From contig CAZALK010000001.1 in the NCBI GenBank assembly GCA_964486045.1, forward strand, positions 64,001-128,000: a stretch of DNA of 64,000 nucleotides. Reading direction: 5' to 3'. Positions 12,550 through 19,148 of the stretch are shown here, one piece after another; the stretch's first letter is position 1, and every line of letters starts with the position of its first letter. Both the position numbers and the translations under genes were made by a program. The notes below the pieces were generated by a model. That model ran no database searches. It was not told the origin of the DNA and saw only the letters and a list, made by a program, of their open reading frames with translations. The DNA comes from an uncultured archaeon. Lineage in GTDB: Archaea > Asgardarchaeota > Lokiarchaeia > Sigyniarchaeales > SOKP01.

Positions 12550-14154
12550 CTAATTATGGTTTATTGCTTCACCATAACCTATTAAACGATAACGTCTATT
12601 TATGATTCGAGATATTGCGTATATGAAATCTTCAGGAGGACAGATAGGTGGTGTGAGTTTTATTATTGTACTGTTCTTCAAAATTTTTGTCACAGTTCCG
12701 GCTGTTTTTTCAGTTCCAACAACTAATAGCAATTTTTCACCATGTTTAAGTGGTTGAACCTTCATTTGAACTTCTGATCCAATTACGTTATCTAACAGAT
12801 TGACTTTTAATTCAATTTCTTTAAGGATCTCGGGGAGCGTTCCTGGTTTTCCAACTAAATTTCCAATTAGATGATCACCTTTGGTTAATGCTGGATCTAA
12901 ATTCGTACCTAAACCAATCAGCCCACCAGGTTTAGCTCTTTTTAATTGTTTAGTTCCCTGGCTAATGCTTACAACATTTGATTTGATTGGGATATATTCA
13001 TCTTTAATGTGTATACCAGGCTTTATTTCGATTTGAGATCCAATTTCAACATTACCTTTCAGAACAGAACCCCCAATCACTCCACCTTGTAAATCTACAA
13101 GTGCCTTTCCAGGTTTATTAATATCAAATGACCGTGCAATTAAAAATTGAAAAGTTTCCGACTCATTAAATGTAGGAGTGGGGATTATTTCCTCAAAAGC
13201 TCTAACGACTAAATTTAAGTTAGCTTCAAAAACTGCCGAGAGTGGTATGATCGGAGCATTTTCCGCAACAGTCCCTTTTACAAATTCTTTAATCTGTTGA
13301 AAATTCTCTAAAGCTTGGTCTCGGGAAACAGCATCAATTTTATTCTGTAAAATGATAATTCTTTTAATCCCTGCAATATTTAATGCAGCTAAATGCTCGC
13401 GTGTTTGAGGTTGGGGGCATGATTCATCTGCAGCTATTAGTAAGCAAGCCCCATCCATTAATGAGGCACCACTTAACATAGTTGCCATTAAAATCTCGTG
13501 ACCCGGTGCGTCAACAAAAGATATATTTCTTTTAAACTCTAAATTCCTTTTACATTTTTGACATGTAAACCGAGGTTGACCTTTTGCTCTTCTCTGCTCG
13601 ATTAAATGAGCCGTAGTATATTCATCACAGGCAGGACAATACAGAATTGTGGCATTAGAATAGCCAAGTTTTATTGAAATGCCCCTTTCTTGCTCTTCAG
13701 AATGTCGGTCAGTCCAATCTCCAGTTAAAGATTTAATAAGAGTTGTTTTTCCATGGTCTACATGCCCAACAAGCCCAATATTGCATTCTGCTTGTTGTCC
13801 TATCAAATCTTTTATTTTTTTTCCCTTATCTTTTGAAGCCGATTTTAGCTTAGCTTTCATTGTTGGTTTCGGTTTAGGAATTGGTTTAGACTTAGGAGTT
13901 GGTATTGATTTTTTACTTTTTTTTTCTGCTACAGATGTAGTGGATTTTTCTTTTTCGCTTATTTCTTCAAGGAATTTTTTTGCTTTTGCTATAATTTTTT
14001 CAGCAGTTGCTTTACCAACACCTTTAATTTTTAACTTTACTAAATCTACGATCTTTATTCTAACTAATTTTTCAATTGAATCTATCCCAGCCGCTTTCAT
14101 TTTGTCTGCGAGGGTTTTCCCAATTCCTGATACATCTTCTAATTCAAAAGACAT
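12550..14154 (-). CDS. eif2g: Translation initiation factor aIF2 gamma subunit with N-terminal HhH domain and Lys/Pro-rich linker
   Basis: QAECNIGLVGHVDHGKTT, RGISIKLGY, zinc knuckle CPAC..CQKC, DAPGHE, QPQTREH, NKID, RSFDINKPG and RLIGYG; about 120 extra N-terminal aa. Confidence 0.95.
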   Translation of the reverse strand: MSFELEDVSGIGKTLADKMKAAGIDSIEKLVRIKIVDLVKLKIKGVGKATAEKIIAKAKKFLEEISEKEKSTTSVAEKKSKKSIPTPKSKPIPKPKPTMKAKLKSASKDKGKKIKDLIGQQAECNIGLVGHVDHGKTTLIKSLTGDWTDRHSEEQERGISIKLGYSNATILYCPACDEYTTAHLIEQRRAKGQPRFTCQKCKRNLEFKRNISFVDAPGHEILMATMLSGASLMDGACLLIAADESCPQPQTREHLAALNIAGIKRIIILQNKIDAVSRDQALENFQQIKEFVKGTVAENAPIIPLSAVFEANLNLVVRAFEEIIPTPTFNESETFQFLIARSFDINKPGKALVDLQGGVIGGSVLKGNVEIGSQIEIKPGIHIKDEYIPIKSNVVSISQGTKQLKRAKPGGLIGLGTNLDPALTKGDHLIGNLVGKPGTLPEILKEIELKVNLLDNVIGSEVQMKVQPLKHGEKLLLVVGTEKTAGTVTKILKNSTIIKLTPPICPPEDFIYAISRIINRRYRLIGYGEAINHN

Positions 14155-18200: not shown

Positions 18201-18420
18201 AAGCTTTATTATTTCTATTTACTTTTTACCAAATAAGAAGGTATTTACCAAGTAAATAACCAGACTTATTGGATGGTAAAATTGTGGTTTTATGACCACA
18301 TAAATAGATAACGTTAAGTTAAGCGCTGGAAGTTAAACTTATTCGCGTTGTAGATAGTACTGCAGTTGATATCTGTGGGAAACTACAAACTGTGAGTTCG
18401 CTCACGGTCATGGTGATTTA

Positions 18421-18464
18421 GGATAATACCCGGTCCCATTGGGGCAGGGATAATACCCGGTCCC
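18421..18464 (+). repeat. 17-bp direct repeat GGATAATACCCGGTCCC (exon copy and intron copy)
   Basis: Identical copies at 18421-18437 and 18448-18464. Confidence 0.95.
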
Positions 18465-18470
18465 GGGAAA
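18440..18470 (+). other. Predicted 31-nt BHB/BHL-type intron in loop C of the 5S rRNA
   Basis: 4-bp helix tccc(18434-37)/ggga(18465-68), bulges att and aa(c), and an internal hairpin ggggc-a-ggg/ccc-g-gtccc. Confidence 0.7.
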
Positions 18471-18605
18471 CCGAACCCGGAAACGCTTATTTATGTGGTT
18501 ATATAAAACTTACTTACTGATATTATATATTTTTGATTAAAAATAATTTTTTTATGTGATCAATTATGATATAGATCATAATAATTAGTGCTAAGGTAAA
18601 AGAAT

Positions 18606-19148
18606 TTGCCTAAAAAATACATTGTTTTTTTTAAAACTATTGGTCGGAAATGGTTCGCTTTTCTTGTGATAATCATCGTAATTATTGCTTTTTTTAACCT
18701 AATTGCAGCAATCTGGATGGCTGCTATTACTATAGTATTGTTTGCTTTATCATATATTCCTAGATTTTTCTTTAAAAATAAATTACACAAATTCATGAAG
18801 GGGTTTTATAAAATCGAAGACGAGCTAATCGCACGGAAGCTCAGAAAACCTCTTGAGAAAGTTAGAGAAGAAATGTTTGAATTGTCGCAAAATCAAGAGA
18901 AAAGAAAATGGTTAATTGTATTTTTAAATAAACAGTATATATACTACCATATTGAAACTATTGATGTATTTAAAAAAGTCTACAATAAGGGATATACTGA
19001 AAAGGAGATACTCGATAATTTAAAAGATTACAAAGTAAATACCAGGATGGAAATAAAAGCGATAAGTGAGAATTTAATAAAACTTAAAAGGCTTAACGAG
19101 AGAGAAATCTCAGTAAAAGAACGTAAACAAAAGCAGAGATTTACGTAG
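18606..19148 (+). CDS. Hypothetical membrane protein
   Basis: Two N-terminal hydrophobic helices and a basic soluble C-terminal domain. Confidence 0.7.
   Translation: MPKKYIVFFKTIGRKWFAFLVIIIVIIAFFNLIAAIWMAAITIVLFALSYIPRFFFKNKLHKFMKGFYKIEDELIARKLRKPLEKVREEMFELSQNQEKRKWLIVFLNKQYIYYHIETIDVFKKVYNKGYTEKEILDNLKDYKVNTRMEIKAISENLIKLKRLNEREISVKERKQKQRFT

Follow-up and report, generated by a model that had tools for sequence, protein, structure and literature searches.

Short BHB introns are known from the 16S rRNA genes of the Thermoproteales, where non-coding hairpins of less than 50 nt interrupt a conserved rRNA motif, carry the BHB at their junctions, occur patchily in relatives and are removed by EndA and RtcB; these introns have also spread laterally, by co-conversion with homing introns (Jay & Inskeep 2015, PMC4496867). 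The relaxed hBH/HBh' introns of archaeal tRNAs have a 4-bp central helix but lack one outer helix, and are cut past the second base of the bulge by (αβ)2 EndA enzymes bearing an L1/CSL loop (PMC4090602, PMC5829648). How BHB introns originated is a matter of open debate (PMC4090602). Permutation at the level of the gene is seen in the SRP RNA of Thermoproteus tenax, which is repaired by the tRNA splicing endonuclease to give a circular RNA, as shown by RNA-seq (Plagens et al. 2015, PMC4731332). According to a 2026 paper, archaeal 5S rRNA does not as a rule go through the excision and circularisation by which 16S and 23S are processed (PMC12918454). The insertions described in 5S rRNA are expansion segments, some of them hairpins in the helix III-loop C region, for which no splice motif is reported; the survey in question, which discarded sequences with internal duplication, gives 104.1-105 in Halobacteriales as the sole archaeal site and leaves the Lokiarchaeia unmentioned (Stepanov & Fox 2021, PMC7812874). 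Lastly, template-switch mutations, in which a few bases copied from the opposite strand make a stem in one step, are described for RNA hairpins through a mechanism with four switch points and include hairpin insertions in rRNA; in the available part of that report they are not tied to the birth of introns (PNAS 2022, PMC8794818).

The window (the whole 64,000-nt stretch of Lokiarchaeia DNA analysed here) contains a 31-nt insert that splits UCCCAU from CCGAAC in loop C of 5S rRNA (Table 1). Flanking genes, genome size and relatives are indicative of a Lokiarchaeia-type Asgard host. We propose that it is, very probably, an EndA/RtcB intron lying in the single detectable and circularly permuted 5S gene of this genome, with cleavage, ligation and a circular 5S as predicted steps. 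It shares with the short Thermoproteales introns its hairpin form, the interrupted rRNA motif, the BHB at the junctions and the patchy occurrence, and differs from them in its 5S host, its Asgard lineage, the permutation of the gene, the absence of an adjoining homing endonuclease and a sequence that copies its own exon. At 31 nt it has no coding capacity and hence none for the LAGLIDADG endonuclease of homing-endonuclease rRNA introns. With the relaxed tRNA introns it has in common the 4-bp central helix, the missing outer helix and the (here predicted) cut past the second bulge base, but it sits in an rRNA and does not resemble in sequence the tRNA introns seen in this genome. The permutation recalls that of the T. 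tenax SRP RNA gene, which however concerns the termini, whereas here an internal intron is added, in another RNA of another lineage, and the circle is a prediction. An intron in 5S or a permuted Asgard 5S was not found in the literature searched, which excluded most subscription journals. Judged from sequence, the locus would combine known chemistry with an RNA host that we have not found reported and an origin de novo that can still be read.

Table 1. Coordinates of the features discussed (window positions, except for the tRNA loci, which are given by contig)
Feature	Position	Strand	Basis or remark
Whole predicted precursor, with 11-bp closing stem 18295-18305/18489-18499	18295..18499	+	both arms conserved in genus
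Terminal (permutation) splice motif, leader strand: AAGCG, CUGG, AA|G	18321..18332	+	same layout across genus
5S rRNA 3' half, first in gene order (circular permutation)	18332..18396	+	
UUCG tetraloop that closes helix I between its normal 3' and 5' ends	18397..18400	+	sequence; hairpin in folding
5S rRNA 5' half as far as the predicted intron	18401..18439	+	
Exon segment copied into the insert: helix II end, loop B, helix III 5' strand, loop C start	18421..18437	+	
Splice motif, left strand: central helix UCCC (18434-37), bulge AU|U, predicted cut after 18439	18434..18440	+	
Insert, predicted EndA/RtcB intron, loop C, site 1 (CCCAU|CCGAAC)	18440..18470	+	joint 18439>18471 of a relative skips 31
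Hairpin 5' arm, apparent inverted copy of exon 18429-18438	18440..18449	+	
Perfect direct copy of 18421-18437; provides hairpin loop and 3' arm	18448..18464	+	
Splice motif, right strand: central helix GGGA (18465-68), bulge AA|C, predicted cut after 18470	18465..18471	+	
Last exon, 12 nt: loop C remainder, helix III 3' strand, AA bulge; from predicted intron to permutation cut	18471..18482	+	
Terminal splice motif, trailer strand: CCGG, AA|A, CGCUU	18477..18488	+	
Miscalled tRNA loci of this genome (G000)	C1:126761-126862; C1 near 526000 and 626250; C23:44434-44535; C28 near 22000		

Rfam and ARAGORN return zero matches in the window, where the locus as encoded scores 18.6 bits with Rfam, below the cut-off, and RF00001 matches just one of 24 genomes of this organism's family. 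A 5S profile match in normal order emerges only after de-permutation and splicing; the permuted layout with its predicted introns also accounts for the genes being overlooked by annotation tools. Against a profile built from 22 unpermuted Asgard 5S genes, the de-permuted and spliced 120-nt sequence scores 36.1 bits (E 9e-13), with poorer fits for a 30-nt cut (33.8), the unspliced form (30.3) and the gene as encoded (10.0). Dropping one repeat copy (27 nt) in place of the 31 nt was tried and rejected, at 28.6 vs 36.1 bits. The short loop C of the spliced sequence is the same as that of many unpermuted Asgard 5S genes, and joining 18482 to 18332 restores CCGGAA-GUUAAA. No second 5S gene was found in the assembly, a draft of 45 contigs from which another copy could be missing; members of the genus preserve synteny here and mostly have one copy, with a gene for a 180-aa protein immediately downstream. 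Throughout the family this neighbor (18606-19148, plus strand) is conserved directly 3' of the 5S gene, at 44-83% identity; its product has a hydrophobic segment at the N-terminus and matches no Pfam family.

At 37 °C, the minimum-energy precursor fold contains an intron stem that pairs 18441-45 with 18460-64 and, past an A-G mismatch, 18447-49 with 18456-58 under an AUAAUA loop, together with the central helix 18434-37/18465-68 and both bulges. The central helix, UCCC/GGGA, has the four of four Watson-Crick pairs of a BHB intron, and the motif is invariant in the three known variants of the intron (this one, the JGI contig L039 and contig X5), in which the stem varies: the intron-side helix that closes the 5' bulge has 8/9 pairs here and in L039 and 9/9 in X5. 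The exon-side helix past the second bulge has one of three pairs, short of the strict canonical BHB (hBHBh'); going by these folds, the site-1 motif is of the relaxed kind. Of the architecture that a previous sequence-only reading had described, the hairpin, the tccc/ggga helix and the bulges thus recur in the minimum-energy fold, and the BHB-type motif is a relaxed one with one outer pair. When inserts are shuffled, 0.3% of trials have a motif of this kind at the same boundaries (probability 0.003). In the folding ensemble the intron stem reaches a probability of 0.7-0.8, and the central helix a share of 0.2-0.33 at 37 °C that drops to 0.05 at 20 °C, so that the splice-motif fold does not dominate. 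Folding back onto the exon is a rival structure that has a probability of 0.2 and prevails when a short segment is folded, because the 5' arm of the intron is able to pair with either repeat copy; the X5 variant abolishes it. Folding did not support avoidance of exon pairing as a reason for lineages to break the inverted arm, since a perfect arm leaves the balance the same (0.19 vs 0.20).

In the pathway that we propose, the exon UCCC would pair with the intron GGGA in the precursor to leave AU|U and AA|C as bulges, the (αβ)2 splicing endonuclease would cut each bulge past its second base, and RtcB would join CCCAU to CCGAAC, with GGUCCCAU-CCGAACCC as the predicted spliced junction. Cutting both 3-nt bulges at this place does restore the uninterrupted gene. 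The terminal motif would undergo a cut-and-join of its own, which would link 18482 to 18332 and yield a normal 120-nt 5S, probably as a closed ring. Because the gene is permuted, it needs splicing regardless of the insert. The fold in which both splice motifs are formed lies 3.7 kcal/mol above the minimum, a penalty from which the modeling suggests that the two reactions may be sequential. The maturation of 5S in these relatives of eukaryotes would require two or three rounds of tRNA-type splicing.

The genome encodes two EndA genes, for an endonuclease of the broad-specificity (αβ)2 type, and RtcB. Catalytic Tyr, His and Lys are all present in one EndA subunit, whose loop lysine aligns with K44 of Aeropyrum pernix 3p1z; the second is without the catalytic His. 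Asgard archaea are reported to have (αβ)2 EndA bearing the L1 loop, a type of enzyme that cuts relaxed motifs (PMC5829648), in keeping with the suitability for relaxed motifs that we predict for the host EndA. In a rough scan, the tRNAs Thr-GGU, Thr-CGU, Pro-UGG, Ala-UGC and Ala-CGC become normal once non-canonical introns of 28-30 nt are removed. A number of ARAGORN miscalls (Pyl, Val, Asp and others; Table 1) are Pro, Thr and Ala tRNAs once freed of such 28-30-nt non-canonical BHB introns. Elsewhere in the window, the minus-strand gene at 12550-14154 appears, by eye from its translation, to code for a GTPase like the translation factor aIF2-gamma, with a long N-terminal extension that has a helix-hairpin-helix-like start and a Lys/Pro-rich linker.

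A 5S match was obtained in 50 of the 54 genomes of the genus, and 49 of the genes are complete; all 49 are permuted, at either of two points 16 nt apart. Site 1 (CCCAU|CCGAAC) is free of an insert in the 48 other complete genes, among them that of G013, whose mature 5S is identical to this organism's at 117 of 120 positions, and removal of the insert at the predicted cuts reproduces the relatives' junction exactly. The marine sediment run X1, possibly the source sample, also holds a minor relative (depth 8.7) that differs at 22 other letters and skips exactly 18440-18470. The sequence-only reading had set the EndA cuts at 18439|18440 and 18470|18471 and looked to orthologous loci for presence or absence; the boundaries observed there, with 48 of 48 other genes free of the insert, coincide with these cuts, which also have the best profile fit and the encoded enzymes on their side, splicing itself being predicted. 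Two variants of the insert come from elsewhere: L039 has three changes, all in the 5' arm, and X5, from another study, has four (G18444A, A18446G, G18459C and C18463T), each of which keeps or improves pairing and which together give the 9/9 stem, although X5 is a single contig of depth 2.6 and is to be read with care.

Inserts of this kind recur in the genus. The lengths of its 5S genes step by 30 (120-123, 150-153 and 180-182 nt), and 24 of the 49 carry one or two inserts. At site 1 and three further sites we resolved 26 distinct inserts, each of 30 or 31 nt, and all except one (25/26) have a 4/4 exon-intron central helix located two bases before each boundary. A stricter motif test was passed by 23, against 0.11 expected from shuffles; the 26 are not independent and represent about four or five origins. 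At site 3 the exon-intron pairs show double changes, with UUAC/GUGA and UUGA/UCAG vs UUGC/GCGA. An order-wide pattern search of 154 genomes gave no further site-1 intron and only site-2 introns and chance matches. The 25 matches in a scan of genome contigs for the loop C insert pattern were rejected as chance, all being bacterial and none in a 5S context; viral contigs searched gave no match.

The sequence makes it nearly certain that the intron was made from its flanking exon. Segments 18421-18437 and 18448-18464 are identical at 17 of 17 positions, with a period of 27 nt and a match that ends abruptly at both edges; the chance of such a 17-nt repeat is ~4e-8, and its first 13 bases have no other occurrence in the 5.18-Mb assembly. 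A 10-nt inverted, a 17-nt direct and a 4-nt fold-back copy account for all 31 bases. The 5' arm matches the reverse complement of exon 18429-18438 at 8/10 positions here and in L039 and at 9/10 in X5, whereas a 27-nt tandem duplication correctly predicts only one or two of the first eight bases; as the start matches the inverted exon and not the tandem prediction, template switching is the simpler route. We consider a direct-inverted-direct template switch the most likely origin, with reasonable though far from complete confidence. Replication would leave the template after CCCAU, copy 10 bases of the opposite strand and re-enter 17 bases upstream at a GG microhomology, producing the 17-nt direct copy from AUAAUA to CCCAU; a fold-back over 4 bases to give GGGA, which complements UCCC, and one U-to-A change, by which the copied AU turned into the AA bulge, would complete the motif. 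The process would be the mechanism with four switch points mentioned above for RNA hairpins (PMC8794818), here inferred from sequence only.

The chief competitor, which is compatible with the intron reading, is a plain 27-nt tandem duplication in which later point changes formed the hairpin and the BHB. The perfect 17-nt repeat at a period of 27 is what it predicts, selection for the hairpin alone would likewise yield a 5' arm complementary to the exon, and its edit distance of 9-12 is just 2-4 worse than the 7-8 for template switching, a gain similar to that on shuffled inserts. It would however require about seven changes in an essential single-copy gene while the adjacent 17 bases stayed perfect, and it leaves the inverted match of the 5' arm (8-9/10) beside its own 1-2/8; we judge it unlikely, while still to be reckoned with. 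Thus, of what the sequence-only reading had reported, the 31 extra nucleotides between TCCCAT and CCGAAC, the perfect copy within them of the upstream exon and an origin from that exon all stand on rechecking, and it is the plain tandem duplication that gives way, in favor of template switching. Since each base of this intron can be derived from its own exon, the birth of an intron de novo is opened to testing. Exon copying is peculiar to site 1 among the introns at the four sites: the longest word shared with the exon is 17 nt there, and 4-7 nt at sites 2-4, which is equal to shuffles and shows no exon copy, so that exon copying is not demonstrable as the origin of the latter.

The insert follows what we take to be the base equivalent to E. 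coli U40. It could conceivably be a retained expansion segment, a hairpin that stays in the mature 5S and projects from loop C, as clostridial 5S rRNAs have loop C expansion segments at positions 34-37 and the insert of Halococcus 5S stays in the RNA (PMC7812874), and the stem is stable by itself at the probability of 0.7-0.8 given above. Published expansion segments, however, leave the conserved motifs uninterrupted and lack complementarity to the 5S core (PMC7812874), whereas this insert is complementary to the core and, beside the uL5 site, interrupts the conserved CCCAU-CCGAAC motif. In 5S, uL5 blocks positions 42-43 and leaves 34-37 open (Stepanov & Fox, PMC7812874), and the location of the insert, next to the former and away from the latter, disfavors retention. 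Retention also fails to account for the four different sites at which a 4-bp helix joins exon and insert in the geometry of a cut site, for the fixed length of 30-31 nt and for the exon-intron covariation. Fixed length, cut geometry and covariation are predicted by EndA introns and not by expansion segments, which favors the intron and makes retention very unlikely.

Fragmented rRNAs occur in bacteria and furnish a precedent for a cut without religation, in the manner of an intervening sequence, after which the 5S would function as a fragmented RNA. Ligation is a prediction here, which leaves room for such an outcome; yet RtcB is encoded, the last exon is a mere 12 nt and the permuted layout requires ligation to restore the helix III bulge, and we regard this outcome as highly improbable. 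Equally hard to sustain is a damaged gene, with a recent duplication having inactivated this copy and a working 5S lying where the genome is unassembled. In its favor are the draft state of the assembly, the frequent absence of rRNA genes from assemblies and the low Rfam score, but the genus shows synteny and mostly a single copy at this locus, distant lineages retain the insert with changes that preserve its structure and about half of the genus genes (24/49) hold such inserts. As to an artefact from the short repeat, assemblers are confusable by such repeats and the comparison used contigs in place of raw reads, but contigs of depth 265 from X1 and 76 from X2, a second marine sediment sample of the same study, were assembled independently of each other and span the insert with zero differences, and the two sequence variants come from other studies, so that on these sequences the assembly error that the sequence-only reading had wished to exclude is excluded for practical purposes.

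The predicted intron at site 1 is shared by two hosts that are not sisters. In the tree of the downstream gene, this genome (G000) groups with two genomes that lack the site-1 intron (100/98) and L039 with two others that are without the site-1 intron (100/97); a clade of both carriers is rejected (AU p = 0.0002, for one 540-nt gene and 14 rows). Four-fold sites of the downstream gene are saturated between the two carriers (11/28 identical), and the site-4 introns common to the same two subclades are identical at 20 of 30 positions, while the site-1 introns agree at 28 of 31, the loop included. By this comparison the site-1 intron appears to be either young or unusually constrained, and it is probably young, with its origin still readable. 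The simplest reading of these sequences is probably lateral transfer, with the conserved exons as the place of recombination; also conceivable are an older origin under strong constraint followed by several losses, and a repeated origin of the intron at this site. We tentatively put forward, as a composite scenario that may or may not hold in full, that a template-switch miniature inverted triplication of a 5S exon created an EndA substrate, which then spread between species without a homing endonuclease, in a lineage that repeatedly gained 5S introns of 30-31 nt.

Several other features of these 5S genes merit mention. Genes with the second permutation point, 16 nt from that in the window (L010-L016, L018-L020, L022-L027, L045, L046 and L050), begin at CCAUCCGAAC and finish at CCCGGUC, with the terminal motif at the start of loop C, and the two permutation types are intermixed on the neighboring-gene tree. 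In three genes (L047, L052 and L054) loop C is one base longer, with a G, A or C added precisely where the site-1 exons meet, which implies that this position tolerates loops of 12 or 13 nt; these bases are possibly scars of intron loss. Site 2 (CCGAA|CCCGG), five bases downstream of site 1, holds a different 30-nt intron that leaves a last exon of 7 nt; it occurs in four genera of the family, with stems that covary (L006, L008, L009, L017, L029, L037, L042-L044, L048, L052, L053, L082-L087, L100 and L101). Site 3 (L030-L037, L051, L053 and L054) and the neighboring site 4 (L021 and L039) hold 30-nt introns in the helix IV region, those at site 3 with a full canonical BHB and compensatory exon-intron changes; L037, L053 and L039 have two introns each. 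In L049 (G070), a fifth insert of ~30 nt lies right after GUUAAAC, near the 3' strand of helix II, with no splice motif resolved. The introns of sites 2-4 are 30 nt long (one is 31) and in most cases have C-G at positions 15-16, often as UUCG, UCCG or UGCG, which points either to a common ancestor that moved between sites or to a UNCG loop reached by convergence; this C-G is missing from the site-1 intron.
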